DNA from: a virus
Lineage: Duplodnaviria; Heunggongvirae; Uroviricota; Caudoviricetes
Reading direction: 5' to 3' (one strand)
Virus record (IMG/VR): IMGVR_UViG_3300025853_000035
Coordinates: 1-64,000 of that record
DNA length: 64,000 nt
Each line of letters starts with the position of its first letter. The stretch's first letter is position 1. The notes under the pieces were generated by a model, which saw only the letters and a list, made by a program, of their open reading frames with translations, did no database searches and had not been told where the DNA came from. Below are positions 1-63,027 of this stretch, in pieces. Position numbers and translations under genes: made by a program.

Positions 1-128
1 GAAGGCATGGGCGGTTGACCAGCTTTTTTCGCCCGGTAAGGTTTGCGGCCATTCCACGCAAAGCGTGCCATCCACGGCGGAGCGGTAAAAGCGCGCTTTC
101 GGGCAGAATGCTAATATGAAAGCGCGGA

Positions 129-365
129 TCATGCCATTTCCTCCAACCAAGGGATCAAGGCGGGCTTATTCATACAAGAGCGCAGGCCGCCGGGGTAGCG
201 AACGGCGACGCTTTCGCCGATCGGGATGGCGCGCAGGGTTTCGATTGCGCCCGCCTTGTCGCCTTCATAGATCAGGGTGTCGTTTTCCCCGATGACGATC
301 GACGTTGCGCCGTTGCGGTCGCTGGGACCGACTTCGCGGACGGAAGAGCGATAAACCTTGAACAT
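129..365 (-). CDS. hypothetical small protein (79 aa, starts MFKVYRSS)
   Basis: ORF 129..434 trimmed to the internal ATG directly preceded by the GGAGACAGAC SD motif. Has its own upstream promoter copy. Confidence 0.45.
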   Translation of the reverse strand: MFKVYRSSVREVGPSDRNGATSIVIGENDTLIYEGDKAGAIETLRAIPIGESVAVRYPGGLRSCMNKPALIPWLEEMA

Positions 366-440
366 TGTCTGTCTCCTTGCTGTTGATTCGTTTCTAGGCG
401 AAGGGACTGATTCGGTCAAGCACTTATTCCACAAAAAGAA
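366..440 (-). promoter_or_regulatory. conserved phage promoter plus leader (family copy, minus strand)
   Basis: Reverse complement reads GTGCTTGACCGAATCAGTCCC..TAGAAACGAATCAACAGCAAGGAGACAGACAATG. TTGACC -35, 17-nt spacer, TAGAAA -10, conserved leader and SD. Confidence 0.6.
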
Positions 441-459
441 AGAGGGGGCGTTAGCCCCC

Positions 460-645
460 TCAAATCATATCCTCCGGCGGATCAATCCCATAGTCGCCCC
501 TTGGGACGCCTTGCGGGTCTTCCTCGCGCTCTATGCGGGCGATTTCCGCCTCCGCCTCCGCTATGGTTGCCCAGCGCGATAGGACGCGCTGACGCAGGAA
601 ACCGTCCGGGCAATGGACGACGGCGACGCGGTGGCGCTTACTCAC
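460..645 (-). CDS. hypothetical protein (61 aa)
   Basis: ORF only. Start overlaps the stop of the upstream ORF, suggesting translational coupling in the 1044->460 operon. Confidence 0.3.
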   Translation of the reverse strand: MSKRHRVAVVHCPDGFLRQRVLSRWATIAEAEAEIARIEREEDPQGVPRGDYGIDPPEDMI

Positions 646-844
646 CGCCAGCCGTCCGAAAGGATGCGGCGGACTCCGCTTCGCCCAGCCATTCTAGTGC
701 GGCGGCGATTTCCATATTGGAGTCGTGCAACTCCTCCTCGGAATAGTCGCCATATTGCGACCCCTGAAAGACGGCATCGCCGTGGCAGTGCAGGGCGTTA
801 ATGATGGTTGCGCGGATCGCGTCCGGCATCGCGGGCGTCGTCAT
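638..844 (-). CDS. hypothetical protein (about 68 aa, starts MTTPAMPD)
   Basis: Internal ATG of ORF 638..919 overlaps the stop of 841..1044 (ATGA coupling). Confidence 0.3.
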   Translation of the reverse strand: MTTPAMPDAIRATIINALHCHGDAVFQGSQYGDYSEEELHDSNMEIAAALEWLGEAESAASFRTAGGE

Positions 845-1044
845 GCCTTCGCGTCCTCCGCCACCGTGCCGGTGATCTCGACATAATCGATCTCGTATTT
901 CATCGAGTCGATCTGCCACGATTCGGACAGGTCCACCTCATATTCATACATGAGTTCGAGGGCCTGTTCCGCCGTCTCCGCTTCCACGACGACGCGCTGG
1001 TGCGTGAATTCCGTCACCGTATAATCAACGAAAAACTTGGGCAT
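841..1044 (-). CDS. small acidic protein (67 aa)
   Basis: ORF with SD GGAGACAGAC plus ATG and an upstream promoter copy. Acidic composition. Confidence 0.5.
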   Translation of the reverse strand: MPKFFVDYTVTEFTHQRVVVEAETAEQALELMYEYEVDLSESWQIDSMKYEIDYVEITGTVAEDAKA

Positions 1045-1118
1045 GTCTGTCTCCTTGTTGGTGATTCGTTTCTAGTATGCTCCGCCGATTCGGTCAAGCA
1101 CTTTTTCCATATTATCCG
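1045..1118 (-). promoter_or_regulatory. conserved phage promoter plus leader (family copy)
   Basis: Reverse complement: GTGCTTGACCGAATCGGCGGAGCATACTAGAAACGAATCACCAACAAGGAGACAGACATG. Confidence 0.6.
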
Positions 1119-1183
1119 GGCTGGGCGTTAACCTTAACGGATGGTAACGGATGACAGGAAAGGGAGGCTTTCGCCTCCCTCCC

Positions 1184-1597
1184 TTAGTTCAGGCCGTATT
1201 CTTCCCGAAGGGCTTCCGCCTCCTCCTCGGTCTCGACCAGCAAGGCGCGGCGGATCATGCTTGTCATGTCGGCGCAGCCGTCCGCCTCGCCTTTCTCGTT
1301 CAGTTCTTCGATCAGGCCCAGCCGGGCTTGTTCGGACAGGCGGGGAGGGGCGTCGGCGACGGAAATGTAGGTTTCGCCGATCCGGGTCAGATATTCCGAA
1401 TGATGATCCTCGAAATATTCCGCAATGGCGTCAGCCTTATCCTCCGGCATCGCCTTGTCAGGATATTCGGTTTCCCACCAGTCGGCGACAAACGCATAAA
1501 TTTCCTCTTCCAGCACTTTCGGCGATTCCGCCACATAGACGTTATTGCCGTTGCCGTGCTCGATGACGGCGACATAGACGGTCGGGCCTTTCTTCAT
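1184..1597 (-). CDS. acidic hypothetical protein (137 aa)
   Basis: ORF, strongly acidic (many D/E). Co-transcribed behind 1594..1875. Confidence 0.5.
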   Translation of the reverse strand: MKKGPTVYVAVIEHGNGNNVYVAESPKVLEEEIYAFVADWWETEYPDKAMPEDKADAIAEYFEDHHSEYLTRIGETYISVADAPPRLSEQARLGLIEELNEKGEADGCADMTSMIRRALLVETEEEAEALREEYGLN

Positions 1598-1875
1598 GCG
1601 GCGATCTCCTTTTGCTTCGTGGCGTTGATGATGGCCTCTTCGATTTGCTCAAAGCACGCCGTTGTTTCGATCCGCAGGCCGGACGCGAGAATAATCGTGC
1701 AATGGTCCCAGATTTCGCGGTCAGCGTCGTTCCAGACGTTCAGGACCGCAGCGACGTGAGGGACGGCGATCATGGCGAAGCCCGGTCCGCAATCATCGCG
1801 GCGCGCTTGCTTTTCCCATATGTCCACTTCGATGAAGCCCGGCATGGGACTGCGTGCGAAAAAATGATCCGACAA
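1594..1875 (-). CDS. hypothetical protein (93 aa, non-ATG start)
   Basis: ORF preceded by a GGGAGACACG SD-like motif and a promoter copy. Confidence 0.45.
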   Translation of the reverse strand: MSDHFFARSPMPGFIEVDIWEKQARRDDCGPGFAMIAVPHVAAVLNVWNDADREIWDHCTIILASGLRIETTACFEQIEEAIINATKQKEIAA

Positions 1876-1950
1876 ATCGTGTCTCCCTATTTGATGATTC
1901 GTTTCTAGGTGAGGGGACCGATTCGGTCAAGCACTTTTTCCACCGATCAA
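1876..1950 (-). promoter_or_regulatory. conserved phage promoter plus leader (family copy)
   Basis: Reverse complement: GTGCTTGACCGAATCGGTCCCCTCACCTAGAAACGAATCATCAAATAGGGAGACACG. Contains the palindrome TGACCGAATCGGTCA. Confidence 0.6.
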
Positions 1951-2081
1951 TGGTTAACGGGCTGGACCGCCGCGTTAACCTTAACGAATGGTTAGGACCG
2001 GCAAGCCAAAGCGGCCGGACTCAAGAGAGTCCAGCCGCCAAGATGATAAGGATGATGCCGCCTATTAGGCGCGTGATGGCT

Positions 2082-2483
2082 TCAATTATCGGCGATCTCC
2101 CATGTAAGGACGAACCACGCTTGGCAGCTTTCCGCGCCGTCGTCGTCCGCATCCTCGTCCGGCACCTCCAGCGAAGCATCGAAAATCCGGGCAGGATCGA
2201 CGCCATCGAATGTCGCGTCGATAGCGGCGGCGATTGCCTCGTCTGTCACCTCGTCCGGCACGCGGTCGCCCGTCTGGCGCACCTCGTCGATGAGTCCTTT
2301 CCGAACGTCGTCAACGGTCGAATTGCCATCGACATAGACGCCGAAAAGGCATTCGCCATCGCGATTGTGATGATCCTGCAAATAGCAGCCGATGCAGGTA
2401 TCGACATGAACCATAGCGACGCCAGAGTCCGCGTCTTCGCGGAATGTGGCCAGTTGCTCTTGGGTCGAGAGAGGGAAGGGCAT
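2082..2483 (-). CDS. acidic hypothetical protein (about 133 aa, starts MPFPLSTQEQ)
   Basis: Internal ATG of ORF 2082..2546 is preceded by GGAGACAGAC. The C-terminus is very acidic. Confidence 0.45.
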   Translation of the reverse strand: MPFPLSTQEQLATFREDADSGVAMVHVDTCIGCYLQDHHNRDGECLFGVYVDGNSTVDDVRKGLIDEVRQTGDRVPDEVTDEAIAAAIDATFDGVDPARIFDASLEVPDEDADDDGAESCQAWFVLTWEIADN

Positions 2484-2562
2484 TGCGTCTGTCTCCTGTG
2501 CGACATTGCACGCCATCTTGCTAGGGGAGGAGAGTGATTCGGTCAAGCACTAATTCCACCGC
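2484..2562 (-). promoter_or_regulatory. conserved phage promoter plus leader (family copy)
   Basis: GATTCGGTCAAGCAC element on the plus strand at 2536-2552, the same family as the other copies. Confidence 0.5.
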
Positions 2563-2571
2563 GCAAATGGT

Positions 2572-2812
2572 TAACGGGCTGGGGCTGGGCGTTAACCTTA
2601 ACAGATGGAGGAAGTCGTTAACCTTAACGCCGCGTTAACCTTAACGGCTCCGGCGTTAACCTTAACGAAGTGGTGGATTTTGTTAACCTTAACGAACCGT
2701 TAACACTAACTAAGTCGTTAACCTTAACGGATCGGTCGATTTCGTTAACCTTACCCGGCCGGCGCGGTTTCGCGCGCGTTAACCATCGGCTGGGCGCGCG
2801 GCGACGATCGCG
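2572..2812. repeat. direct-repeat array of GTTAACCTTAAC (about 8-10 copies, spacers 4-14 nt)
   Basis: Seen directly: CGTTAACCTTAACG units recur between 2572 and 2812, with variants GTTAACACTAAC and GTTAACCTTACC. Confidence 0.9.
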
Positions 2813-2835
2813 GGCGCGGTTTTCAAAATCAGATG

Positions 2836-3026
2836 CAAAATGACCTTCGTCCATAACTCCCGGCGCAAAATGGCCTCGGTCCATAGAATCGCAAAATGAC
2901 CTCGATCCATAATAGCAGATGCAAAATGGCCTCGGTCCATAATTTTGCAAAATGACTTCGATCCATGACTTCGGAGCGGTCGCGGGCGATCACCCAGCAA
3001 AATGACCTCGATCCATGACATGGGAA
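2836..3026. repeat. direct-repeat array of CAAAATGACCTCGATCCATAA (about 7 copies)
   Basis: Repeated aaaatgaccttcgtccataa, aaaatggcctcggtccatag and aaaatgacctcgatccataa units. Confidence 0.9.
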
Positions 3027-3829
3027 GGCCCGTGGGAGGCTCAGGGAGCGCCACAGGGCGTCAGGAGGCCCCAGAAGGCACCGGGAGGACCTGTTGAGGC
3101 TCCACGGCGCTTAGAACGGCTCTGAGGGGCCTCCAGACGGGCACTGTAAAGCCAGAATGGCGGTCGAAGCACCAGAAAACGGGTCAAATCCGCCATTTTA
3201 CCCTCTGAGGGGTCAATTTCCCGGCCTTATGTCGCCAAATGTCCGTTTTTCGACATTACACCGACAGTTTCACTTGACATTGGTGGTGGAGCCGACCCGG
3301 CCGGGGTCCGATTTGACGAACCATCTTTTACAACATTAGGCTGTAAAATCACAAAATCTTTTTTCGACTTTGCCCCTTCAAACCCGCAGAAAACTGCCAT
3401 TTTCCCTTCTAATATTCCAATCTACAGATTGTGTGACTTTAGTCGGTGCAACATTACCGGCGCGGCGCGGCCTCAAGGGGACGATCCGGGACGCCGGACA
3501 TGGGTCGTCGATCGCTTCCCGAGGCTTCTCAGGGCGATTTGTGGAGGCGGCTGGAGGATGTGATGGAGGTGGGAGGGGGGCGTGCTGCCCGGAAATGGTG
3601 GAGATATGGGTGGAAGGAGTGATGGAAAATCGAAATCCAACACCCCGGCCTATGTCCTGACGGGGAGGGTCCCAGAGGTCTGGAGAAAAGGGGTCCCCGG
3701 CCCTTGCTCTGAGGGGGAGGGTCCCCTAGTCTGTGTCGTGGGGACCGTCGGCCGGATGTCGTTCGTCGGGGTCCCCCTGATCGGCGGGACGGTGCGGATG
3801 CAGGCTGGCGGACGAGAGCATGGCGGGCC

Positions 3830-3957
3830 TTTTGTTAAGGTTAACGCGGGGAGGGGATTTGTTAAGGTTAACGGATTGGAAGGTTTCGTTAAGGTTAACG
3901 CGGCCGGCATTTCTGTTAAGGTTAACGCCGGGAGCGATTTCGTTAAGGTTAACGACC
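3830..3957. repeat. array of GTTAAGGTTAAC (6 copies), the inverse orientation of the 2572-2812 array
   Basis: tgttaaggttaacg repeated with 12-20-nt spacers. It is the reverse complement of the GTTAACCTTAAC unit. Confidence 0.9.
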
Positions 3958-4027
3958 GCCCGAATGTTCCCGAACGGGGTCATTTCGGTCAGATTCGGGC
4001 GGTTTTTACGCTAATGTTCCCGAACGG

Positions 4028-4088
4028 GAGCATCAAAATGACCTCGATCCATAATAACCGCAAGGCAAAATGGCCTCGATCCATAATT
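4028..4088. repeat. two further copies of the AAAATGACCTCGATCCATAA repeat
   Basis: caaaatgacctcgatccataa and caaaatggcctcgatccataa. Confidence 0.85.
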
Positions 4089-4106
4089 TTTGATTGGATG
4101 ACCGGC

Positions 4107-5870
4107 TCAGCGGTGGCCAGCGCCGGTCATCTTCTTCGTCCCGCGACGGGCCTTCTGCTTGGCCCATTTCAGATATTGCGAGGTGGCGTCCACTTGGTCG
4201 TCATTCTTGCCGTTAGGGAAGGCCACGAGTTCCTTCTCATAATCGGCAAGCCACTTGGCGCTTTCCGGCAGGTAGACCTGCCCGGCCTCGAACATCGGCG
4301 TCACTTCGTCGAAACGGAACGACTTGCTCGCGGTGCCCACCTCGATTGGGATCAGCGCGGTAGGAGCACCACCATTCGCCTTCAACTGGCAATAGGCCAG
4401 ACCGTTGCCCTTGGCTTCGACCAGCAGGGCGTCGGCGTCGTAGCGCTTCACCACGCGGGCGATCTCGGACGACAGTTCGACCAGTTCCATTCGCTTGCGG
4501 ATCACGTCCACCAGATAATGGTTCCGTTTGAGGTCTTCGATCCAGACCGTGATGACGGTGTAGTCGCTTCGCTCCTTGTCCGTGTTCGCGGCGTCAACCG
4601 AAACCACGGTGCGACGAATCTGGTTCTGCGTTCCCTTCTCAGGATCGGCCTTGGCCGGCGGATGGGTGTAGCGCTGGAACCATTCAGCATCGACCGCGCC
4701 GCCGCTCACGTCCATAGGCGTGCCCTGATACAGCGAGTTCCACGACGCGGAAGTCATATCGCTTCTGAGATTTTCCAATGCGTCGAGGTCGTAAACCTCT
4801 GGCCACAATGCTTCGCCGGACGCCCGGCCTAGAATATCGTTGTCTTCTTCGGCGATGGCGGGGAGATTAATAATTTCAAAGCGGTATTTTTTGCGTTTTC
4901 CCTCTTTTTCCTCAAGAGAATCAATGAGTTGGTCCGCAAAATCTTTTTCTATTTTTTCTTGCTCTTCTCTTTTTTCCCGTTCTTCGCGATCTGAGATGCG
5001 TCCGCAGAGGTCGTCAGAGTGCCAGCGGGTCATAATAATGCCCAGCGGGGAACCCGGCAGAAGGCGCGTGGAGAAGTCGTCTGAATACCATTTGAACGCG
5101 GTGTCGCGGATCGTCGGGCTTTCAGCGTCCTTGCGGCTCTTGTAGGGATCGTCCACCATACCGTAGTGACCACGGAAGCCGGAGATACCCTGTCCGACAC
5201 CCTTGCCGACATATTTGCCCTTACCATTGGTCAGTGCCCAATAGTCCATGGCGCGCATGTCGTGCTTGATCTTGATGTCGGGGAAGACGCGCTGGTAATC
5301 CTCAGACGCGATGATCTGGCGAACGGTTGCACCGATTTCCTTGGCGACGAAGTCCTGACTGTGCCCGGCTTGCAGGAACTTCTGCTTCGATCCGAACTTG
5401 CCGAACCACCACGCAGGGAAGTGGTGCGACGAGTGGGTCGATTTACAGTGCCCCGGAGGCATGGACAGCATGAAGCGCATGGTCTCCTTGGAAGCGGAGG
5501 ACATGAGCAAGTCTCCGATGAGTTTCTGGTGCGGCGACATGGTGTAACCATTCTCGCGCTGCATGAACTCATAGAAATCGTGGTAGCTCTCGCGCGCCAG
5601 TTCGATCCAGACTTCGTCCAGTTCGGCCTCGGCGAAGTCGATCGTCTTATCGAGCGTGGTTAGCTGCGTGTCGAGATCGTCGGACTGACTAAGCGTCCGA
5701 AGTGCTTGGTAGTCGTGGGGCGAGAGGGTTGTCTGCTTGCGGACTGCTTCCTCCACTCGCGTCTGCAAGGACTTGAGTGACTTGACCGATGAGTGCAAGC
5801 GTGTTTTGCGGTCCCGCTTGCTTTCCGCTAGTTGCATCTGCTTGTGCTTTCTCGAACATTTTGAGGGCAT
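4107..5870 (-). CDS. terL: terminase large subunit
   Basis: 587-aa ORF. ATPase region plus the MTRWHSDDL motif and a C-terminal nuclease region (VSVDAANTDKERSDYTV, GKNDDQVDA). The start is uncertain: the listed start overlaps terS by about 180 nt, and later Met codons exist. Confidence 0.8.
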   Translation of the reverse strand: MPSKCSRKHKQMQLAESKRDRKTRLHSSVKSLKSLQTRVEEAVRKQTTLSPHDYQALRTLSQSDDLDTQLTTLDKTIDFAEAELDEVWIELARESYHDFYEFMQRENGYTMSPHQKLIGDLLMSSASKETMRFMLSMPPGHCKSTHSSHHFPAWWFGKFGSKQKFLQAGHSQDFVAKEIGATVRQIIASEDYQRVFPDIKIKHDMRAMDYWALTNGKGKYVGKGVGQGISGFRGHYGMVDDPYKSRKDAESPTIRDTAFKWYSDDFSTRLLPGSPLGIIMTRWHSDDLCGRISDREEREKREEQEKIEKDFADQLIDSLEEKEGKRKKYRFEIINLPAIAEEDNDILGRASGEALWPEVYDLDALENLRSDMTSASWNSLYQGTPMDVSGGAVDAEWFQRYTHPPAKADPEKGTQNQIRRTVVSVDAANTDKERSDYTVITVWIEDLKRNHYLVDVIRKRMELVELSSEIARVVKRYDADALLVEAKGNGLAYCQLKANGGAPTALIPIEVGTASKSFRFDEVTPMFEAGQVYLPESAKWLADYEKELVAFPNGKNDDQVDATSQYLKWAKQKARRGTKKMTGAGHR

Positions 5871-6228
5871 CGCCCATCATCTTGAGGCATTCATTGGCGG
5901 CCTTGTATTCGCCGGCCGCCTGAGCGAACTTCACATTGGAAGCCATCATGTCCATGACACGTTGGAAGGTCCAAGCAGCCACTTCGACAGCGCTTTCGGG
6001 ACTGCCTGCGGCTTGCTTTCGGAGAATGTCGAACTCCACGCTTTTGCGCTCGATCTCCGCACGCAATTCTTCCACCCGTTGTTTCACGAGCGGCTGGCTG
6101 GCGAGGGTGCTGGCGTTCGAGCTTGATGGCTCGTATCCAGCGTTGGTGTAGGCATCTAGCTGCGTGCAGCCTTCGGCGAGGAACTTGGCGAAAAGCTCCT
6201 GCTTCTTGTTCAGGTAGGTTTGGGCCAT
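5689..6228 (-). CDS. terS: terminase small subunit
   Basis: MAQTYLNKKQELFAKFLAEGCTQLDAYTNAGYEPSSSNASTLASQ resembles P27-family terminase small subunits. The start sits at the stop of the RuvC-like gene. Confidence 0.65.
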   Translation of the reverse strand: MAQTYLNKKQELFAKFLAEGCTQLDAYTNAGYEPSSSNASTLASQPLVKQRVEELRAEIERKSVEFDILRKQAAGSPESAVEVAAWTFQRVMDMMASNVKFAQAAGEYKAANECLKMMGDALKMFEKAQADATSGKQAGPQNTLALIGQVTQVLADASGGSSPQADNPLAPRLPSTSDA

Positions 6229-6776
6229 TACTTGGGTGCCCCTTTTCTCTTGGGGAGGGTCCCGTTGATGAGACCGAGGTGGAAGGGTTGGGTGGGCTGG
6301 TGGCCCAACAGGATCGCGGAATAGAGGGCGATCAGAGCGGACTCGGCCCGGCCATGATCCATCTTGCGGGACCAGCCGGCGGTGCAATTCGGGAAGAGGA
6401 GCGAAGCGCGGTGCTTGGTCTGCTCCTTGTCGGCCGGGCACTGCATGTGCATCTTCCACTTGGCCGGGGCGACCGAAGCCATGGGGATGTCGAGGCCGGC
6501 GGCGATGCCGAGGGCGATGCCAGTAACCTTACCGAAGGTGAACGCGCCGACATGACCATCGTTCGGCGTCGATTGCACGTTTTCGATCGTGCAGTAGTCG
6601 AGCGGGAAATGCGAAAACGCCGCGACGTAGCCATCCACGTCGCAGCGCTTGCGTTCTTTGTCCCCGACCTTGACGATCAGAGTGGGGGTGTCCCAGAGGT
6701 GAAGCTGGAAATCTTGGAGATCGAGGACCGCGAGTGCCCCGGTCAGGCCGGGGTCGATCCCACCGATGAAGCGCAT
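6228..6776 (-). CDS. RuvC-like Holliday junction resolvase
   Basis: N-terminus MRFIGGIDPGLTGALAVLD matches the RuvC/YqgF fold signature. Confidence 0.7.
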   Translation of the reverse strand: MRFIGGIDPGLTGALAVLDLQDFQLHLWDTPTLIVKVGDKERKRCDVDGYVAAFSHFPLDYCTIENVQSTPNDGHVGAFTFGKVTGIALGIAAGLDIPMASVAPAKWKMHMQCPADKEQTKHRASLLFPNCTAGWSRKMDHGRAESALIALYSAILLGHQPTQPFHLGLINGTLPKRKGAPK

Positions 6777-7171
6777 GGGGAGACTTTGAACAGAGGGATG
6801 ACATTCCCCTCTCTGGTCTCCAGCACCGGCGGGCCGCCGGTGAAGAAGAGATCAAGTTCTCGGTAGGCGTCGAGGTAGCGGAGGATTTCTTCCACCGGTT
6901 CGACCACCGGGAGCTTCCTGCCATCGTCCAGAAGGATTTCGGTTGCAGGTAGAAGGGAGCAGAAGTCGGACTCTACACCACTTTCCTCCACTTTGTCAAG
7001 CAATGACTTGACAACAGCGATTTTGTCAATGTCAATCGAGACTGTCAGTGTTTCGATCGAGTCGGGCCGCCGGATCGGGACGGTGACCGGGAAGCTAAAC
7101 ACGGCGGCACTCCTCCGGGGTGGTCGGCCATGGCTCACCTTCCTCCGGGTAGAGAAACGGCGCAACGACAA
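6743..7171 (-). CDS. hypothetical protein (142 aa)
   Basis: ORF in the compact minus-strand operon. Confidence 0.4.
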   Translation of the reverse strand: MSLRRFSTRRKVSHGRPPRRSAAVFSFPVTVPIRRPDSIETLTVSIDIDKIAVVKSLLDKVEESGVESDFCSLLPATEILLDDGRKLPVVEPVEEILRYLDAYRELDLFFTGGPPVLETREGNVIPLFKVSPCASSVGSTPA

Positions 7172-7430
7172 GCATCCCGTTCGAGCCGACGGCGACCCAC
7201 TCCTCGTTCCCGTAGGTGAAGACCTCGACCGAGAAGCGGATTTCGTGCTGTGGGGTCAGTGCGTGCAGATCGTCATATTCGGCCGGTGGTGGGATCAGCT
7301 TCATGGGAGGCACCCACGACAGCCGCATCGTCGGACCGAAGCCGCGATGGTAGCGACTGAAACCCAGATGCTGCCAGAAGATTGCCGCCAGTGCTTCGCG
7401 GCTGGTCGGCGGTAGCTCAGCGGTAAACAA
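7095..7430 (-). CDS. hypothetical protein (111 aa)
   Basis: ORF only. Confidence 0.3.
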   Translation of the reverse strand: MFTAELPPTSREALAAIFWQHLGFSRYHRGFGPTMRLSWVPPMKLIPPPAEYDDLHALTPQHEIRFSVEVFTYGNEEWVAVGSNGMLVVAPFLYPEEGEPWPTTPEECRRV

Positions 7431-7803
7431 GATAGTCCTCCAGCTTGATGTCCGCGAGTTGGTGGAAGCCTTCCCATGGGAAGGGGTGAATGATGACGCG
7501 ATGACCGCAGACGAGTGATGCGAACACCGTGCCGCCGAGCATCGCGTCTTCCAACGTGAAGGTCAGCGTGACCGGTCGGATTGGGAAGGGGTCGATCCCG
7601 TCCTCGTCGTCAGGCTCGCGGGGATAGGAGATCGCGCTGCGGGCGGGGAAATAATCGACCACCACCTTGCGGCGCTTGGTCGCAGCCATGATCTGAGGGA
7701 CGCCAGCCAGCGCAGCCGCCTCCACCAATTCGGCGAAGGGTAGCTCCCGGCTCATGTGTTGGAACCCAGCGCGCGGATCATCGCGGCAGTGACCGGGTCG
7801 CAA
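7417..7803 (-). CDS. hypothetical protein (128 aa)
   Basis: ORF only. Confidence 0.4.
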   Translation of the reverse strand: MRPGHCRDDPRAGFQHMSRELPFAELVEAAALAGVPQIMAATKRRKVVVDYFPARSAISYPREPDDEDGIDPFPIRPVTLTFTLEDAMLGGTVFASLVCGHRVIIHPFPWEGFHQLADIKLEDYLVYR

Positions 7804-8093
7804 TCTGCGTCGTCGAGCAGGGCGACCAGTTCCGAGTAGGGAACATAGTAGCTCAGCGCGCCTGCCTTGATACCAACGATCGGATCGCGGGTGAGGGAAG
7901 GTGTGCTGTCATAGCTGACCCAGCGCGAATAGCTGATCGAGGTGATCGTGTGCTTGGGAAGCTCGACGCTCTCGAAATAGAGGTCTTTGGCGTTCGGACC
8001 GAGTTGATGTTCGTCGATCGCGATGAGAGAGGGGATGTAGTCGGTCGGGGCGGTCTTCGCGTTGTAGACCAGCCGATACCCGTGGGTGAGCAT
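7752..8093 (-). CDS. hypothetical protein (113 aa)
   Basis: ORF only. Confidence 0.4.
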   Translation of the reverse strand: MLTHGYRLVYNAKTAPTDYIPSLIAIDEHQLGPNAKDLYFESVELPKHTITSISYSRWVSYDSTPSLTRDPIVGIKAGALSYYVPYSELVALLDDADCDPVTAAMIRALGSNT

Positions 8094-8254
8094 TGATAGG
8101 GAACTCCGTGGCTTGAGGGCCTATGGTCAGCCAGAAGATACCCAATGTCAAGGGAAAATGGCGGTCAGGGAGGTTTGTAAAAATTACTGAAAAATCTAAT
8201 AAAACTGGTTGGACCGCTAACCCACGGTAATCCGCCGTCGTTTACGGAAGGTTC

Positions 8255-8298
8255 CCTACTATATTATATATTTATATATTTTTAATAATAAAGTATAT
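8255..8298. repeat. AT-rich tract (tatattatatatttatatatttttaataataaagtatata) in a 63%-GC genome
   Basis: Seen directly. Candidate DNA-unwinding element. Confidence 0.85.
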
Positions 8299-8499
8299 AA
8301 CCAAGAACCTTCGCATAGGGCCTCACCGGTCAGAACGGGGCGATCAGGGCAGACCTAATTCGTGGCTGGGCTGAATAAAAACGAAACGTAAAAGTTGGTG
8401 GCGGCTCAAAAAAGCCCGGTAAAATCGCTGTAACCCGCAGAAAACAGCCATTTCTACACCATCACTCGTCCCTTATCACCTCCTCTAATTACCTCTCCA

Positions 8500-8640
8500 T
8501 CACGCCCAAATCGCAAAAACCCACCCCGCCATCACGCCCATCACGCCATCTCGATCCCCTCCATCACGCCTCCTCGGCATCACGATCATCACGCCATCAC
8601 GATCATCACGCCATCATGGCCGTCACGTCAAAATGACACC
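8500..8640. repeat. iteron-like direct repeats of CATCACGCC and ATCACGATCATCACGCC
   Basis: ccatcacgcccatcacgccatc...catcacgcctcctcggcatcacgatcatcacgccatcacgatcatcacgcc. Confidence 0.85.
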
Positions 8641-8788
8641 CGAATATCCCGACAAAATGTCCAATAAAAAATAAAAAGACACCCGGCGGCCCCTGAAACC
8701 CTTGGAAATCCGTCGCTTTCACCTTCCACCACTTTTTCTAACATTTTGGATCGTTGACAATTATCGCGTGATGCACCATCATGTGAGA

Positions 8789-10138
8789 ATGACCACACCA
8801 ACCAGCCATACTGACGCTGCCGACTCGCAGACGCCCGCCGCCGTCCCTGATGTGCCCTTCACCAGCCGCTCCGGTGCGCTACCCAACGAGCGCGTGATGA
8901 TCACCACGGGCATCTTCTATGTGATGGAGCACGACGGCCCCATCCGCTTCTGGATTCACGCGCGCACCTACAACAAGCGCCCGGTCGCTGGTGGTCCCAA
9001 GCGCGTTCGCGGCTTCAACGAGTATGACAAGGCCGTGCGCTTCATGCGCCGGGCGACCAAGGACGCGATCGCCGCTGATCCTGCCGTCCGCAAATGGTTG
9101 GCCAGCTATGAAGGTGTTGAGGCCAACAATGCCGCCGGCATCCAGAACTTAGACCCTGTGCCCCCTCGCAAGCGTGGCCGGCCGGTGGGCAGCAAGAATG
9201 CACCCAAGCCGCAGAAGCCGGGACCGAAGCCCAAACCGCCCGAACCGAAGAAGCGCGGACCCAAGCCGAAACCCCAGCCGCCCGCGCCGATCGAGCATCC
9301 GCCCGTGTCCTTGACCGCGCTGGTTGATCGCTTCCGCATCGAGCCGGAGCTTTCCAACCCGATCGCACAGGTCTGGCGCTGCGTCTCGAACACGGCTCCT
9401 GCTCGTGGCCGCCGGGCGCGCACCGGGAACAACCAGACCGGCGACCTTCCGCACCTGATGGGGAGCTACCTCATCACGCACTATGACCGGGGCGTCTATT
9501 CGGCCGCCTCGGATGAAGACGGCGTGGCCTATATCTATCCGACGTGGATCGACGCGGAACGGGAGGCCAAGTTCTTTTACGAGCAAGCGCCGGAACCCAA
9601 GCTGCCGATGGAAGGGATCACCCACTACCGGGTCGATCATGTTGAGGTTCACCTGACGCCCGCCATCCACGACGGCCGGCCCTATTCGCTGTTCGACACG
9701 CGGGTCTGTGCATATGTGCGCGACGGGCGCGGATACAAGTCCTACACCCGACTCGACAGTGCAAAAGAAGCGGCAAACGAATATGCCGACCTCGCGCCCT
9801 TCTCGGTGCGGCTGGCCCGCGCGCTGGTGGAGACGCCGGAAGAGAAGGCGAACCGCGAGCGCCGCGAGGAACTGGAAGCGATCGAAGCCGCCCGCGCCCA
9901 AGAGGAACGCGACCGCCTCTATGAAGAGGAGATGGCTGACCTCGCGCGCCGCCGGGCGAACGCGCCAGAGCGCCGGTTCCTGACACCGGAGGAGATCGCG
10001 ATCGAGAAGGCCAAGCGCGTGCAGATCATCAACCCGACGCCGGAGCAGAAGCTCGCCGCCCGCCGGGCCAAATATGTGCGCCGGTCCTATTCGGATCGGG
10101 AAGCGCGCGCCCACCGGCAGGCGGCGTCTGATTCGTAG
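8789..10138 (+). CDS. AT-hook-containing DNA-binding protein (candidate origin-binding protein)
   Basis: Pro/Lys-rich segment with AT-hook cores (PRKRGRPVGSKN, KKRGPKPKP) and a charged C-terminal coiled region. A TTGACA promoter lies inside the listed ORF, so the start was moved to the ATG at 8789. Confidence 0.55.
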   Translation: MTTPTSHTDAADSQTPAAVPDVPFTSRSGALPNERVMITTGIFYVMEHDGPIRFWIHARTYNKRPVAGGPKRVRGFNEYDKAVRFMRRATKDAIAADPAVRKWLASYEGVEANNAAGIQNLDPVPPRKRGRPVGSKNAPKPQKPGPKPKPPEPKKRGPKPKPQPPAPIEHPPVSLTALVDRFRIEPELSNPIAQVWRCVSNTAPARGRRARTGNNQTGDLPHLMGSYLITHYDRGVYSAASDEDGVAYIYPTWIDAEREAKFFYEQAPEPKLPMEGITHYRVDHVEVHLTPAIHDGRPYSLFDTRVCAYVRDGRGYKSYTRLDSAKEAANEYADLAPFSVRLARALVETPEEKANRERREELEAIEAARAQEERDRLYEEEMADLARRRANAPERRFLTPEEIAIEKAKRVQIINPTPEQKLAARRAKYVRRSYSDREARAHRQAASDS

Positions 10139-10203
10139 AATAAGTGGTTGATCGAATCACATCACGCGGTTATGTCCGTCTCAACGAAACAACAGGAGGA
10201 CAC

Positions 10204-10575
10204 ATGAAATCCGAAGATATGGACCGCGATCAGTTGCTCGAACTGGTTGCCCGCCTGCGCGATCGCGTTGGTCTGCTGACGGCCGAGAAGAACGGCCAGC
10301 GGAAGGAATATGAAACCCGGATGGCTAATCTCCGGTCGGCCAAGCGTCTCGCAAACAAGCGCGCCGACGCGGCCGAGGAAGCTATGCGTGGCATGGCCGC
10401 CCAGATGCAGAACCTGATCGCATACAAGACGCCGGCCGGTGCCGTCGTCTGGGAACTGCTGCGCCGCTGGGTCAAGCGCTATGAGGCTGTGCCCGCATGG
10501 TCGGCCGAGCGCGACATGCAGATTCTCCTCGACTCCCGCGCCGTCCTTGCTGAGCACGAGAAGGCGGCGGCCTGA
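10204..10575 (+). CDS. hypothetical protein (starts MKSEDMDRDQ)
   Basis: Internal ATG preceded by the SD AGGAGGACAC and a TTGATCGAATCACATCACGCGGTTATGTCC-type promoter. Confidence 0.45.
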   Translation: MKSEDMDRDQLLELVARLRDRVGLLTAEKNGQRKEYETRMANLRSAKRLANKRADAAEEAMRGMAAQMQNLIAYKTPAGAVVWELLRRWVKRYEAVPAWSAERDMQILLDSRAVLAEHEKAAA

Positions 10576-10868
10576 TGTTCGGCTTCTTCAATCGCAAGCG
10601 GCCGGCCGCGCCGGTGACGCAGGTCCTCGTCGGCCTGACGCCGGAAGCGACCTCAGTTGCCATGAACGCGATCCGCCAGTCCATGGACAACATGGCGGAG
10701 CAGGAGGAGCAACTGCGGCGCGACGCCAAGGAACACCACGAGCGGGCCACGCAAGCGGAAAACAACGCACGCGATATGCGGCGCTATGGTCGCCGCTGCA
10801 CGGATGAAGCCGATGCCCTTGCCCAGAAGCGCGCCGCGCTCGCTGAAACGCTCAAGATCGGGGGATAG
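10575..10868 (+). CDS. hypothetical protein (97 aa)
   Basis: ORF. ATGA overlap with the upstream stop. Confidence 0.4.
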   Translation: MFGFFNRKRPAAPVTQVLVGLTPEATSVAMNAIRQSMDNMAEQEEQLRRDAKEHHERATQAENNARDMRRYGRRCTDEADALAQKRAALAETLKIGG

Positions 10869-10869
10869 C

Positions 10870-11133
10870 ATGAACGACAAGGAATTCCTCACCATGGTCG
10901 CTTCCCACTGGCCATACACCCGCGACTGGATGACGCCGGGAGACCTCGAAGCCGAGCGCCAGCGTATCCGTGACATCGCCGATCGCCTCACGCCGGCCGA
11001 CCAGACGCCCGAAGACATCTTCCATGCCGGATACGAGGCGGCTCTGCGCCACACAAGCGGAGGCACGCGCCCCATGGACCTGACCGCTCAGAAGGCGTGG
11101 GCGCAATACCAGCGGATGCAACAGGCGAAATAA
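10870..11133 (+). CDS. hypothetical protein (starts MNDKEFLTMV)
   Basis: Internal ATG of ORF 10786..11133. Confidence 0.4.
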   Translation: MNDKEFLTMVASHWPYTRDWMTPGDLEAERQRIRDIADRLTPADQTPEDIFHAGYEAALRHTSGGTRPMDLTAQKAWAQYQRMQQAK

Positions 11134-11193
11134 TTCACCGCCATTTGCACAAACCCTATAGACAGTCTCACATGACATAGGTATCAGAATCAC

Positions 11194-11817
11194 ATGACGA
11201 ACGAATCGCAAGCCACCCGGTCCTTCTTCGCGGAGATCGACCAGATACTCACCGAAGGAAAAGGAGCCTCCATGCAGACCACCACCGACCGCACGATCGA
11301 CTCCAGCGCAGCATTCGGCGCGCTGCTCGACGAAATCTTCGGCGCTGCCAAGCCCACGGCCCAGCCGGAACCGACCGCTGCCGACAAGGAAGACATCGAG
11401 AACGCGCTCGCCTTCATCGACCTGATGTCCGCTCTGCTGGGCGTGCCGCCGGTGGCTCCGACTGCCGCGCCGTTCGCGATGGTGCCCTTCGCCAAGCTGT
11501 TCAGCACCCGCCACGGCCAGTTGCTGGTCACGCTCAACAACCCGACGCCGGAGCACGACGGACCGCACATCGTCATTCGCGGTGCCGGTCCGCGCGAATA
11601 CACGCCCGAGTTCGTCATGGCCTACACGGGCACCGACGAGGGCTGGCTGTCGGCCGCGCGCGCGTTCGATGCCTTCTCGCAGGAAGTCGCCGAAGGTGCA
11701 GCAGCCGATCTGTCGGCGCGTGGTCAGGCGGCGTTCTCCGAGCAGTTGATGGCCGCCATGGCTGCGTCCGCCGAAGCGGGCATGACCGACACCACCAAGC
11801 ACCGCGACGCGGTCTGA
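11194..11817 (+). CDS. hypothetical protein (207 aa); its C-terminal half is paralogous to the next gene
   Basis: Shares the FAKLFxTxHGQLLxT...DGPxIxxRG motif with 11830..12129. Confidence 0.5.
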   Translation: MTNESQATRSFFAEIDQILTEGKGASMQTTTDRTIDSSAAFGALLDEIFGAAKPTAQPEPTAADKEDIENALAFIDLMSALLGVPPVAPTAAPFAMVPFAKLFSTRHGQLLVTLNNPTPEHDGPHIVIRGAGPREYTPEFVMAYTGTDEGWLSAARAFDAFSQEVAEGAAADLSARGQAAFSEQLMAAMAASAEAGMTDTTKHRDAV

Positions 11818-11829
11818 TCGGAGGGACCG

Positions 11830-12129
11830 ATGGCAAAGTTCGCAAAGCTGTTCGAGACCGAACACGGTCAGTTGCTCGCAACGATCGAAGGCGTCGGTGA
11901 CGACTTCGACGGCCCGACGATCTGCCTGCGCGGCGAAACCGCCGAAGGCGTCGAGCCGGCGTTCCGCGCCGGCCCGTTCACCGACACCCCGCAGGGCTGG
12001 GCCGAGGCCGAGGATTTCCTCGCTCGGATCGATCAGGAAGATGCCGAGAACATCGCCCGCAATCTGTCCGCGACCCTGAGCAACTTCATGCGCTCGGTCG
12101 AAGACGAGGCGGCCGAGCAGGTTGGCTGA
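11830..12129 (+). CDS. hypothetical protein (99 aa), paralog of the 11194..11817 C-terminal domain
   Basis: MAKFAKLFETEHGQLLATIEG versus MVPFAKLFSTRHGQLLVTLNN. Confidence 0.5.
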   Translation: MAKFAKLFETEHGQLLATIEGVGDDFDGPTICLRGETAEGVEPAFRAGPFTDTPQGWAEAEDFLARIDQEDAENIARNLSATLSNFMRSVEDEAAEQVG

Positions 12130-53754: not shown

Positions 53755-56700
53755 TTAAAGGCCCCGGACCTTCATCGCCTTCACGTCCTCTTCGGACATG
53801 ATCTCGATGTCGAGTCCCTTGCTTTCCTTGAGGTTGGCGCGGACCTGCGAGAGCGGCGGGAAGATGAACACGCGGCTCTGGTTGGTCTGACCGTCAAGCT
53901 TCATCTTGACCTCCCGAGCGCCGAACCAGTCGCCCACCACCGTCGAGATGTCGTCGAAGCTGGTCTTGGCCTTGTCCGACGAGAACAAGAAGCGGACATA
54001 ATCCGACACCGCTGCTCGCAGGTCCTTGGCGTAGACCATCGTCTCGCGATCGTCGTTCAGTTCGATCGACGGGAAACGGTTCTCGTCGCTCGTCTCGTAA
54101 AGGCCGGACTTGACCAGTTCGAGCATGAACTTCTGCACGCCCGACAGCGTCTCGATCTGCTGCTTCTGGAGGTGGTCGGTCTTGGGCGGCGTGAACAGGC
54201 TGGCGAAGGTGCCCTTGACCGGCTTCCAGTGGAGCAGGTCGTGCAGCATGGCTTGCAGGCCACCCTTCTTGTCCATCTGCTCGCGCATCAGGCCGAAGAA
54301 CTCCAGATCGCCTTGGCGGGCATCCGAGCAGCGCAGCACGAAGAAGCGACGTTCGTCCTTGAGCGAGGCAGGGACCACCCAATCGTTGTTCGAGATCAGC
54401 GCGAGGCGCGTGTAGTTCTCGGACTGGATCGGGTCATAGCCCTTCTTTTCGATCAGCACCGACTTGTTGGTGATCATGTCCTTGAGGACACCTTCCGCCT
54501 GCGGGTCAGCGGCCCAGAAGGCTTCTTCGCAGACCATGAGCAGGGCGGTTTCAAGGTGGCCGTTGAACTGACCGACGATCTGCTTCCGCTGGCTCACGGT
54601 GATGCCGTGGAAGCCAAGCAGCTTGTTGATGAAGTCGAACAGGGTGGACTTACCCGTGCCCTTACCGCCGGTGATGACCAGCGTCGAACCCGGCTTGGCC
54701 TCCGGCTTCTGGAACAGCATCGCCAGCCACGTCATCAGCCACTCGAAATACTCGTCGTTCGACTCGCAGATGTTCTCGTAGATGTGACCACGCAGCATCG
54801 ACCAGTCACCGGCGACCGGTTCGTCCTTGTTGTCGAGGATGTTCTCCCACGTCGTCGGGACCGGCTCATACGGCCAGCCACGGAACAGGTTGTAGATGTC
54901 CTTGGCGACGCGGCGGCCGGGAGCGAACACCACCTGACGGTAGGTGCGGCGCTTGTCCCATTCCAGCCACAGGTCGAACCCGGCCAGCTTCTTCGACTGC
55001 TTGCCCTCGGCGATCCAGATCACGCGGTTCTTCTCGAACAGCTTCACGTCTCCCTGCGTTTCGAAGATCACGTCATCATCGGCGGAGCGCGGCTCCACCA
55101 GAATCTTGACGCCGCCGGACGTGCGGATCACTGCATAGCGCCGGTTGAACGCACGCAGCATGGTTTCCTCGGAATCGCCGAAGTCAAGATCGTCGTCCTC
55201 GAACTCCGGCTCCTCGGCCTCGTCGGTCGTAGGGGCGTCGGCGCGCGGCGTCGGCTTCTTCGGCTTGACCGGCTCTTCCTCCTCTTCCTCGTCCTCCTCC
55301 AGTTCGAACAGATAGTCCTTGTTGGTGAGGTCGGCCGGCGTGATCAATTCCTGCTCGATCAGTTCCTTGAGGTAGTCGAGGCGATCGCGGCCGGAGCAGG
55401 CGTTGTGGGTGCAGTTGAAGGTGAAGCCGCCTTCATAGCCGTCTTCCAGATTGTCGGAAGCGTTGACCACGAAGGTGCCGCCGCCGCCGAAGCTGGAGTG
55501 CTCGGCCTCGAACGGGCATTCGACGTGGACGCCGGCCTTGTTACCCCGGCCTTCGCGGATGAAGTCGCCACCGATCACATCCTCAAGCATCGCCTGCACA
55601 TCGAAGCGCTTGGCGTGCTTGATCGACCAGCCCTTGAGGTTGAAACCGCCGCTGGTGATGTAGCGGTTTGCGTCGTCCTCGTCGCCGTCATCCGCTCCAC
55701 CGGCCGCCGTGAAGGCGTTGCTGGCCACGGCGCTACGCTTGTTGTCGCGGCCCCGGCGCATCTTGACCCGGTCGAACTTGTCGAGGTCCAGCGGCTCGCC
55801 GCAGACCACCCACGAACCGAACGCCTTGTCCTTCGAGGCGTGGCGGGGCAGGTAGAAGAGGCGGGCAGGGTCTACGCACTTCTCATCGAAGAAGAGATCG
55901 AGCGCGGTGCAGAAGCCAGCATAGCGTTCCTTCCACTCGTCGATCGCATCCTTCTGCGAGCCGCCGCGCTTGGCGAACACGAAGGCTTCCTTGAGCGGAA
56001 ATACCGCACGGAACTTCGGCATCGGCTTATGCTGGACGAGGATGACGACGCCGTCTTCCGAGTGGTGGGCGTCATCCAGAATCGTCAGTTCCTCGACGAT
56101 CGCCGGCAGCACACCCTTCTTCTTGATCAGGTAGTCGCGGACCGCTTCCTCTTCGACCTCGGATGCCTCGGCCCACTTCATGAAGTGGTCGCGCTTGATG
56201 ACCGACGTGTTCTTGAGGTGGCTGTGGGTGGTGTAGATCACCGCCTCCAAACCATGCTGCTGGATCGTCCGCATCACGTCGTCGAGCGGCGCACCGGAGT
56301 CGAGATCGACGCCGAGGATGTGGTTGGCGATCATGGCGACGGCCTTGCGGGCACCGTTCGCGGACTGTCCTTGCAGGAAGCAGGGACCGTCCTTCTGGCC
56401 TTCCTTGTGATCCTGCAACATCGTCTCGAACTGGCCGAAGGTGCTGGACACCTCCTTCCACTTGCCCTGCGCTTCATCGCGGCGGCGGCCGGTCATGAGC
56501 GTGATGTTTGTCATGGTGCCCGGCGTCTGGATGTCGAGGTCCTGCGGGAGATACCAGTTCAGGCCGTCGAGATTGACCTTGCCCTTGCTATCGAGGAAGA
56601 CCGAGAGCGGGCACAGGTGCAGGCCGCTCTTCTGCCCGGAGACAGGATCGCCGTCGAGCATGTAGATCATACCGCCGGACACGTCGAACGAAGGCTGAGG

Positions 56701-57530: not shown

Positions 57531-57699
57531 CGGATTTCACCGTGTTTGGAGACAGACAATCTCCGGCGGATAACTCCTGATAGGGGGTTGCACCCTACCG
57601 GTCAAGGCACCTTTCGCTGCTGCCCGAACGAGGATAGCGGTCTATCGACTTCCGCCCTCGCCAGCACGTCTACCACTTACCCGAGGTTTATCACCGTCA

Positions 57700-62622: not shown

Positions 62623-62757
62623 GGGTTCTCAAATCTGGCTGGGGAGGGGCGGCACCTAAGCGGATGCCATCTTGTTAACCATAGCAGGTTATGCCCCAAA
62701 TGTCAATTCATAATGACCGTCAGTAAGACGTGACACTGGTTTTCGCTGGGGATGATC

Positions 62758-62833
62758 TGGCACGGGTGGTGGGACTCGAACCCACGTTGCACGGTTTTGG
62801 AGACCGGCCGAATAGCCGCTATCTTACACCCAT
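62758..62833 (-). tRNA. tRNA-Trp (CCA)
   Basis: Manual cloverleaf: acceptor ATGGGTG/CACCCGT, T-arm GTGGGTTCGAGTCCCAC, anticodon loop CTCCAAA, encoded CCA. Confidence 0.6.
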
Positions 62834-62842
62834 GTGAAACGC

Positions 62843-62926
62843 TGGAGCCGCCCACAGGGATCGAACCTGCGTCCTTTCGGAACCTCCGGGTTGCAACCGG
62901 GTGCCTTACCTCTCGGCCAAGGCGGC
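62843..62926 (-). tRNA. class II (Ser-like body) tRNA with apparent GCA anticodon
   Basis: Acceptor GCCGCCT/GGGCGGC, Ser-like D-arm GGCCGAGAGGTAAGGC, 14-nt variable arm, T-arm GCAGGTTCGATCCCTGT, CCA. The anticodon region CCGGTTGCAACCGG is palindromic; the most plausible loop TTGCAAC gives GCA. Confidence 0.5.
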
Positions 62927-62933
62927 TCATATC

Positions 62934-63020: not shown

Positions 63021-63027
63021 ATTAAAC

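Follow-up and report, generated by a model that had tools for sequence, protein, structure and literature searches.

A repeat-rich untranslated region beside the terminase genes of a Lacusarxvirus-type siphophage, a probable control region with CtrA-type sites

We examined a window of 64,000 nucleotides (positions 1 to 64,000 of the IMG/VR virus record IMGVR_UViG_3300025853_000035; Caudoviricetes), and in it a non-coding gap of 1,623 bp (2484-4106) that is filled with short repeats and lies between a minus-strand gene for a protein of 133 amino acids (aa) and the terminase gene terL. Its nearest isolated relatives infect Erythrobacter (phage XM05, 77% identical in nucleotides over terL) and Citromicrobium (phage vB_CbaS-RXM, here RXM), and the clade to which the window phage belongs is that of the Lacusarxvirus-type prolate siphophages related to the Caulobacter phiCbK group. 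A preliminary description of the stretch had held that it is non-coding and that the open reading frames listed in it are spurious, and the same was found when the 20 open frames of at least 40 aa in the gap were compared with relatives by tblastn: none was conserved as a protein, and the matches fell only on DNA repeats, in many frames and on both strands. A search of positions 2300-4300 against Rfam at E values up to 1 gave just one chance match, to a microRNA family.

The repeats are real, as had been claimed, with 15 GTTAAC-type sites and 8 copies of a 20-mer in 2484-4106, and the idea of a dense protein-binding region adjoining the terminase genes is supported. Two repeat families were found instead of the three first described, the supposed third being family A read on the other strand. 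The unit of family A is a 14-bp near-palindrome, CGTTAA-SS-TTAACG, and therefore its "orientation" consists only of a central CC or GG. The left A array contains six exact copies of GTTAACCTTAAC at 2591, 2617, 2634, 2655, 2682, and 2717 (exact units of the CGTTAACCTTAACG type, n = 6), two degenerate copies (2699 and 2744), and two GTTAAC half-sites (2570 and 2778), the half-site being TTAACCAT; the earlier count of 8-10 copies at 2572-2812 thus stands at 10 sites, but over a different span (Table 1). On the right, where six reverse-complement copies had been placed at 3830-3957, there is indeed an array, but of five GTTAAGGTTAAC copies at 3834-3953, and an array with the same 27-bp period is also found in Brevundimonas phage Gurke. 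Of the "mirrored arrays" of the preliminary description, the inversion of A between the two sides was seen again, whereas family B (the 20-mer) is direct on both sides; moreover, mirrored arms are not a conserved feature, because relatives mix CC and GG units within one array.

Table 1. Features of the gap and its surroundings (positions in the window)
Feature	Position	Strand	Description
Third early-promoter module	1087-1139	minus	-35 at 1097-1092; A unit at 1126-1139
Second early-promoter module	1920-1995	minus	-35 at 1930-1925; TTAACCAT half-site at 1950-1957; A unit at 1973-1986
133-aa gene	2082-2483	minus	ATG at 2483; first early gene
P_E1 (putative promoter)	2517-2546	minus	-35 TTGACC at 2546-2541, then GAATC (GANTC site); -10-like CTAGCAAG at 2524-2517
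Left A array	2567-2789		10 GTTAAC-type sites
B iterons	2835-3018	plus	6 direct copies of GCAAAATGRCCTCGRTCCATA; spacing 26-50 bp
GC-rich tract	3020-3140		RGG/AGG motifs about every 10-11 bp; read from sequence
AT-richer centre	3140-3460		GC minimum 0.37-0.42 at about 3320-3460; poorly conserved sequence
G-skewed tract	3520-3640	plus	GTGATGG motifs; skew +0.5 to +0.7
C repeats	3643-3790	plus	CCCCGGCC-N-CTGA-N-AGGGTCCC units; GGGTCCC at 3667, 3691, 3719, 3769
Right A' array	3833-3954		5 copies of (T/C)GTTAAGGTTAACG; strict 27-bp period
Hairpin	3954-4008	plus	CCGCCCGAAT...ATTCGGGCGG, then TTTTT; delta-G -30.2 kcal/mol, z -3.3
B' pair	4033-4090	plus	2 B iterons, same orientation; 17-74 bp from terL stop
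terL	4107-5870	minus	stop at 4107; phrog_38, E 1e-107; Pfam Terminase_6C
Predicted terminal-repeat boundary and packaging-start terminus	4824-4826	minus	terL codon 349, D-I-L-G-R|A-S-G-E; by homology
terS	within 5689-6459	minus	upstream of terL

The concentration of the A motif was evaluated relative to whole-window shuffles, which also served for GTTAAC and for family B. The 14-mer, with up to 2 mismatches, gave 22 strand-hits (14 sites) where 0.10 were expected, and GTTAAC gave 20 matches where 3.9 were expected; 18 of these 20 lie within 1127-3953 and 15 lie inside the 1.6-kb gap, as do 26 of the 52 TTAA of the window. The sole two GTTAAC outside the part of the window that we assign below to a terminal repeat (62674-62682 and 63731-63736) are at a cluster of 11 minus-strand tRNA genes (62758-63978), and one of them, GTTAACCAT, overlaps a sequence that resembles a TTGACA-type promoter and precedes the gene ending at 62622.

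A generic sigma-70 scan found no promoter, and the early promoters were then found through their own repeated consensus. Four near-identical minus-strand promoters of the form TTGACCGAATC are present in the window, with -35 elements at 419, 1097, 1930, and 2546, and 20 further copies of the module were found in phage XM05. The family reads TTGACC-GAATC-N11-CTAGAAAC-GAATC, and the module with its upstream part reads GGTAAC-N-TTAAssTTAAC-N12-TTAACCAT-N13-GTGGAAAAAGTGC-TTGACC-GAATC...CTAGAAAC. The member at the left edge of the gap, which we call P_E1, would drive the 133-aa first early gene, its promoter function being deduced from the consensus and from its repetition. TTAA sites were observed at a fixed upstream distance in 21 of the 24 early promoters (4 in the window and 20 in XM05); within the window, three of the four bear an upstream A unit, with or without a TTAACCAT half-site, at a fixed distance, and an A unit lies about 60-90 bp upstream of most of the other early promoters. 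This fixed placement upstream of early promoters indicates that A is a transcription-factor site, and since early promoters, the first to fire, must work while no phage protein is yet present, its binder is most likely a host factor. The left array appears to be an amplified form of this upstream element, placed upstream of P_E1; a GTTAAC unit that acts as an early-promoter upstream element of CtrA-binding type was not among the readings offered in the preliminary description.

Further members of the promoter family have -35 elements at 25609 and 29273 on the plus strand and at 20651 on the minus strand. GANTC sites (the CcrM methylation sequence) directly follow the -35 and -10 elements, an arrangement reminiscent of promoters sensitive to GcrA and to methylation. 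The 133-aa product of the first early gene is very acidic, and searches of Pfam, PHROGs, and NCBIfam assigned it to no family; a DNA mimic or an anti-restriction protein made early would fit both its charge and the place of its gene, and the terminal repeat of RXM carries ArdA.

The position of the gap relative to the end of the phage chromosome was predicted by homology. In the paper describing RXM, the direct terminal repeat (DTR) was placed at record positions 1-10,992 from two-fold read coverage, and since RXM terL occupies 10,296-11,981, the coverage boundary lies inside terL. For phiCbK, experimental mapping put the left physical terminus at terL codon 652, and packaging was taken to start there. 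In Caulobacter phage Ccr2, the annotated repeat begins 779 bp before the terL stop, and the left-end gp001 is a truncated terL C-terminus. We found that the RXM and the Ccr2/phiCbK boundaries fall in the same column of the terL alignment, no more than 1 nt apart, in the codon for the Arg of D-(I/V)-L-G-R. The homologous position predicts that the packaging terminus of the window phage is at about nt 4825, approximately 720 bp to the right of the gap, and window positions 1 to about 4825 would therefore be terminal repeat. By this assignment, the gap would be the first untranslated stretch of a roughly 10-kb DTR, lying 0.7-2.3 kb in from the end at which packaging starts, and the small genes read leftward would be early genes of the repeat. 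Lacusarx likewise has terS and terL immediately upstream of the DTR, and the terminus of phage Colossus is at the very start of the equivalent untranslated stretch, which is 1.9 kb long there.

Two independent metagenomic contigs of IMG/VR (L020 and L021) end inside terL at about aa 261-266, which is not the predicted terminus and gives it no support; these ends fall just before a variable Lys/Glu-rich segment of terL and are probably assembly breaks. A low-GC stretch of the window terL (4860-4990, codons ~293-337) encodes a Lys/Glu-rich linker just upstream of the predicted terminus codon, and this linker also occurs in XM05, is longer in RXM, and is missing from Ccr2. The Ccr2 terL (gp323) has an insertion of roughly 340 aa, which is the intein already reported for phiCbK-like phages, and the terL genes of the window phage, XM05, and RXM do not have an insertion of this type.

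A concentration of sites for CtrA, a response regulator of the host that governs its cell cycle, in the DTRs of phiCbK-like phages and of Lacusarx has been described (Mascolo et al. 2022, PMC9437464), together with the binding of phosphorylated CtrA (CtrA~P) to phiCbK DTR promoters, the CtrA-dependent expression of these promoters, and the binding of CtrA~P to a probe from phage Delta. A type of control called "lytic deferment" has been described for phiCbK, Delta, and Cp1R7A-A1. The window resembles the phages of that study (phiCbK-like phages, Lacusarx, Cp1R7A-A1, vB_BsubS-Delta, and MMDA13) in that its TTAA-type sites are concentrated in a predicted DTR with a large intergenic gap and are intergenic and promoter-proximal; Lacusarx is of the same clade as the window phage, and in RXM, 38 of 55 TTAA lie within the DTR. 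At the level of the individual sites, the core of the A unit is TTAAC, and TTAACCAT half-sites, to which the MMDA13 repeat TGCGTTAACCAT is equal, form part of the early-promoter module. Window positions 2618-2643 match 25 of the 26 positions of TTAACCTTAATGCCGCGTTAACCTTA, the core of the phage Delta probe that was shifted by CtrA~P in an electrophoretic mobility shift assay, and within the arrays GTTAACGGTTCGTTAA is found, a sequence similar to the validated phiCbK box GTTAACGGTTTGTTAAC. The canonical dyad TTAA-N7-TTAA occurs in the repeat part of the window as two perfect copies (2624 and 2689), both arising between adjacent A units, and as one copy with a single mismatch (1981). The A unit was also found in phages of Caulobacter (Ccr2, phiCbK, and Colossus), Brevundimonas (Gurke and Delta), Erythrobacter, Citromicrobium, and Sphingomonas (MMDA13), and this range of phages fits a conserved host factor.

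On this evidence, we think it probable that the A units are bound by CtrA, and activation, judged only from the position of the sites, is the more likely mode of its action here. For the gap as a whole, the interpretation that we favour, with a probability of roughly 0.6, is that it is an untranslated control region with CtrA-type sites at the head of the long DTR of a siphophage of the Lacusarx/phiCbK cluster. The leftward early genes of the repeat would start at the left edge of the gap, from P_E1, and the CGTTAA-SS-TTAACG units and TTAACCAT half-sites would bind a TTAAC-recognising transcription factor, most likely phosphorylated host CtrA. The A unit would have been amplified in the gap into the 10-site array upstream of P_E1 and the 5-site array adjoining terL, so that early transcription would depend on the CtrA state of the infected cell, a control of the "lytic deferment" type. 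The elements between the arrays (the 6 + 2 B iterons, the GGGTCCC repeats, and the G-skewed tract) would serve other factors. The anatomy of the gap, its conservation, the association of A with promoters, and the homology of the terminus are observations; CtrA as the binder, the sign of its effect, and the roles suggested for B and C are inferred.

Several observations weigh against this interpretation. Most A units are of the form TTAA-N2-TTAA (13 units) and not N7, the canonical TTAA-N7-TTAA is not enriched over the window (4 found, 2.3 expected), and relatives often have TTAACCAT-N5-TTAA, equivalent to an N9 spacing, with 0-5 canonical dyads per region. In this the window differs from the phages of Mascolo et al., for its dominant unit is the 14-bp near-palindrome with N2 spacing and its canonical N7 dyads are rare. 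This mismatch in spacing means that a different TTAAC-binding protein, such as a phage Ros/MucR protein, is possible. The validated phiCbK CtrA box overlaps or replaces the -35 element, as at gp005 and gp018, whereas the sites in the window are upstream of a good, intact -35. No early-type promoter adjoins the right A' array, and hence the control of transcription is not a direct explanation of that array. The two arrays (10 + 5 sites) bracket about 1 kb with iterons, GGGTCCC repeats, and an AT-rich centre, an arrangement not described for the phages of the earlier study, and the B iterons, C repeats, and AT-rich centre are without an assigned function.

An alternative to which we give a low probability is that the TTAAC arrays are operators that switch the early promoters but are bound by a factor other than CtrA, either a phage regulator or another host protein. 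A small dimeric protein would be better served by the 14-bp dyad, with its 6-bp half-site spacing, than by the 11-bp tandem dyad of CtrA, and RXM encodes regulators of the Ros/MucR, helix-turn-helix (HTH), and LexA types. A phage factor would nevertheless have to be reconciled with early promoters that must fire before phage proteins exist, and no homologue of the RXM regulators (Ros/MucR, HTH, LexA-like, and A1-like) was found within the 64-kb window, which encodes no such regulator. Against any factor other than CtrA, it also counts that a nearly identical sequence binds CtrA~P in vitro and that the A unit is common to phages with very different gene sets and hosts.

In contrast to A and C, which recur at promoters elsewhere, B is the only element unique to the gap locus. 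Where about seven copies had been reported at 2836-3026, we found the array but only six copies (2836-3017), and the two further units reported at 4028-4088 proved to be two B copies at 4034-4085; all eight share one orientation, and with up to 3 mismatches the motif gave 8 matches where 0.01 were expected. In the window, B is confined to the gap, in the whole RXM genome it occurs only at 9424-9551, and in IMG/VR it was found in this phage clade only. The B 20-mer had 6 single matches in 596 Gb of bacterial genomes, in unrelated phyla and at about the chance expectation, so that full-length B is not a host chromosomal element. That B is unique to the locus and the clade points to a phage-encoded binder on a unique cis site, and we suppose that the B iterons would be bound by such a protein; their role may be that of a secondary origin, a loading site for the small terminase TerS, or an operator. 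The B' position next to the terL stop is occupied by one or two copies in XM05 and in lineages L007, L014, and L015, and B' was not found in RXM or in lineages L008, L009, L013, L018, and L019.

The GGGTCCC repeats, the G-skewed tract, the AT-rich minimum, the hairpin with its run of T, the early promoter, and the GC-rich RGG tract are additions to the elements first listed for this stretch. At the position of the RGG tract (3020-3140), which was not detected by Tandem Repeats Finder, relatives have similar periodic CTnAGG/GCTGGAG motifs. The AT-richer centre contains inverted B-core-like elements (CCAGAATGGCGG at 3153, CCGCCATTTT at 3188, and CTGCCATTTT at 3397), and an AT minimum (GC 0.29-0.43) is found at the equivalent place in 9 of 11 lineages, the 100-nt GC minimum falling instead in the distal TTAAC array in the other two (L008 and L009). 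Every lineage has a maximum of G-skew (0.38-0.73) somewhere in the region, and in about 7 of 11 it is beside the C repeats. As a minus-strand RNA, the G-skewed tract would be C-rich and G-poor, and it could be a Rho-utilisation site that stops late transcripts reading through from terL. The hairpin at 3954-4008 looks like a plus-strand intrinsic terminator; it is specific to the window lineage and is absent from the other lineages in the alignment (A1).

The C repeats, which hold four of the six plus-strand GGGTCCC of the window, are kept in all relatives. The only other occurrences of the octamer GGGTCCCC in RXM precede genes of the PhoH operon, which lies at the other boundary of the terminal repeat; this suggests a site for another regulator. 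Four GGGTCCCC octamers and a GTGATGATGGTGG tract flank this far DTR boundary of RXM (103,990-104,206 and 1-100), and these are the two motif types of window positions 3520-3790; in Ccr2, GGGACCC-AAGGCCCCC is present on both sides of the far DTR boundary. We considered whether GGGTCCCC clusters mark the repeat boundaries and rejected the idea: they are near both boundaries in RXM, yet several genes of the PhoH operon carry them upstream, and regulation explains the pattern equally well. When viral contigs were scanned for three spaced GGGTCCC, more than 119 unrelated matches came up, and the scan was not specific enough to be informative.

The preliminary description had suggested looking for equivalent arrays in related phages, and it was found that the broad order of the elements recurs in about 11 lineages with terL identities of 67-100%. 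From the terL stop, this order is the A' array, the GGGTCCC repeats, the G-skewed tract, the AT minimum, the B iterons, the A array, and the first early promoter, and a variant layout is present in phiCbK (1700-2380) and Colossus. Across the lineages the motifs are conserved while the spacers diverge. A layout of several parts, with arrays, unique iterons, GGGTCCC repeats, and an AT-rich centre, is conserved.

It had been proposed that the repeats form a pac or cos site, but the predicted terminus falls in terL codon 349, and 720 bp separate it from the gap; the gap thus neither contains nor abuts the cut site, as judged by homology to phiCbK and RXM and not from reads of the window phage. A recognition of the pac type could still operate at a distance, with TerS oligomers loading on B, B', or C and TerL then cutting a fixed site in terL, and we consider this unlikely. 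In every relative, the region is where non-coding DNA first occurs behind the packaging-start terminus, and the Colossus terminus abuts the equivalent untranslated region, which would fit such a recognition; it would also give a role to B as a unique cis element with B' abutting terL, as well as to the GGGTCCCC clusters near both DTR boundaries of RXM. However, the nearest array lies 720 bp from the predicted cut, the main B array lies 1.8-2.0 kb from it, and the cut falls at the same codon in phiCbK and RXM despite differing distances to the arrays, which argues for local recognition. Furthermore, the recurrence of A and C at other promoters means that they are not packaging-specific, and B' is missing in half of the lineages. 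Iteron origins, P4 ori/crr, the pac sites of SPP1, P22, and P1, and lambda cosB are likewise clusters of short direct repeats that bind an initiator or a small terminase, and in P4 two clusters are about 1 kb or more apart. The window differs from these in having no adjoining initiator gene, a predicted cut 0.7-2 kb away, and an irregular spacing of the repeats.

A replication origin had also been proposed. The Caulobacter crescentus origin (Cori), which ties DNA transactions to the cell cycle, has an AT-rich region and the sites of other initiators between flanking CtrA sites; its canonical TTAA-N7-TTAA sites number five, and it also contains DnaA boxes. The gap of the window likewise has TTAAC sites flanking an AT-rich part, but no DnaA boxes: the box TTATCCACA, with up to 1 mismatch, was not found in the gap. 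A CtrA-gated origin is an alternative of low probability, in which B would bind a phage initiator (for example, the P4-family primase-helicase encoded at 53755-56913), the AT-rich centre would melt, and CtrA, through the flanking TTAAC arrays, would silence initiation or set its timing, as it does at the chromosomal origin of Caulobacter. The direct 20-22-bp iterons (6 + 2) and the inverted B-core elements beside the AT minimum (GC 0.37) would fit an origin, as would the uniqueness of B in the genome, the AT minimum that separates the iterons from the C repeats in 9 of 11 lineages, the G-skewed tract beside the AT-rich part, and the presence of the P4-type primase-helicase (1052 aa) in the window. 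The missing DnaA boxes tell against it, as does the lack of an adjoining initiator gene, the gap being flanked by terL and the gene of the acidic 133-aa protein. The iterons are irregularly spaced (21-50 bp), and the AT minimum is about 300 bp from them, with a stronger AT tract elsewhere (8255-8300).

This stronger tract belongs to a divergent intergenic region at 8094-8701, which is a far stronger candidate than the gap. The proposal of an origin in the gap is not supported in its original form, and any origin or packaging role would fall to the B iterons. The region contains an almost pure A+T tract of about 45 bp (8255-8300), about 10 copies of CATCACGCC/CATCACGAT at 8489-8640, and the B-core-like sequences GAAAATGGCGG (8155) and GTCAAAATGACA (8627). 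It includes the lowest-GC kilobase of the window and lies at the maximum, and turning point, of the cumulative GC skew, and its layout is also present in XM05 and RXM. We regard 8094-8701 as a candidate origin or major promoter hub.

An untranslated region with many repeats in a long terminal repeat also recalls phage T5, whose injection-stop signal (iss), in the left terminal repeat, is a large conserved untranslated region in a DTR of ~10 kb, with direct and inverted repeats and palindromes (Davison, bioRxiv 10.1101/866236). By analogy, a multi-repeat region that binds host factors could pause or anchor the entering DNA of the window phage, a reading to which we give very little weight. The gap is indeed a large untranslated multi-repeat region inside a long DTR, the clade encodes a protein like T5 A1, and in the right-hand repeat copy the region would enter last, about 8-10 kb in. 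In T5, though, the ordered host-factor boxes are DnaA boxes (8 in its terminal repeat), of which the gap has none, and the function of the iss is tied to two-step injection, which is not known in the window clade; the A1 homologue, moreover, is in the replication module and not in the repeat.

The last function proposed in the preliminary description, a partition centromere for a ParB-like protein at 58998, found no backing. The protein encoded at 58998-59855 has no ParBc match in Pfam at E values up to 5, none in NCBIfam, and nothing among PDB sequences; it was rejected as a ParB, its only match being to phrog_5931, a family of unknown function. When the 79 proteins of the 64-kb window were searched against Pfam, ParA, ParB, and ParR were not among the 25 families listed of the 31 matched. 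Tandem arrays of short dyads do resemble some plasmid centromeres, but with no Par protein among the matches listed and no ParB signature in the 58998 protein, a centromere is scarcely credible. The same applies to the possibility that these are decaying repeats without function, which is excluded by the conservation of the motifs, and broadly of their order, across lineages down to a terL identity of 67% while the spacers diverge. In the neighbouring non-coding stretch 57600-58320, repeats resembling tRNA T-arms (GAGGGAGTCGAACCCTC) were seen at 57721 and 58447, together with three long-range inverted repeats with arms of 23-27 nt; this stretch could hold degenerate tRNA genes or a structured RNA.

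To return to the control region with CtrA-type sites, a bolder form of this interpretation, which we put forward as possible but improbable, would join the two TTAAC arrays and the elements between them into one nucleoprotein switch. CtrA~P on both flanks would then control the first early promoter and also access to the B-iteron and AT-rich core, which would be an origin or a terminase-loading site. If this is true, one host cell-cycle signal would time both phage transcription and a DNA transaction, and the gap would be a counterpart of the Caulobacter origin and of the T5 iss.

The main component of the gap is already known as a kind, namely the CtrA-site-rich terminal repeats of phages of the phiCbK cluster. 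New here are the form of the site, a 14-bp dyad, its constant position within a large family of early promoters, the conserved multi-element layout, and the unique B iterons. With this analysis, a marine lineage of Lacusarx-type phages and about 10 uncultured relatives join the phages with terminal repeats loaded with CtrA-type sites, and in the window lineage about 20 near-identical early promoters carry the site at a fixed upstream position. The terL-internal terminus proven for phiCbK is common, to the nucleotide, to a distant relative and thus extends across genera. The unique B iterons offer a definite starting point in the search for a new phage DNA-binding protein, and if CtrA does bind both flanks, the region would be a good model of how virulent phages read the host cell cycle.

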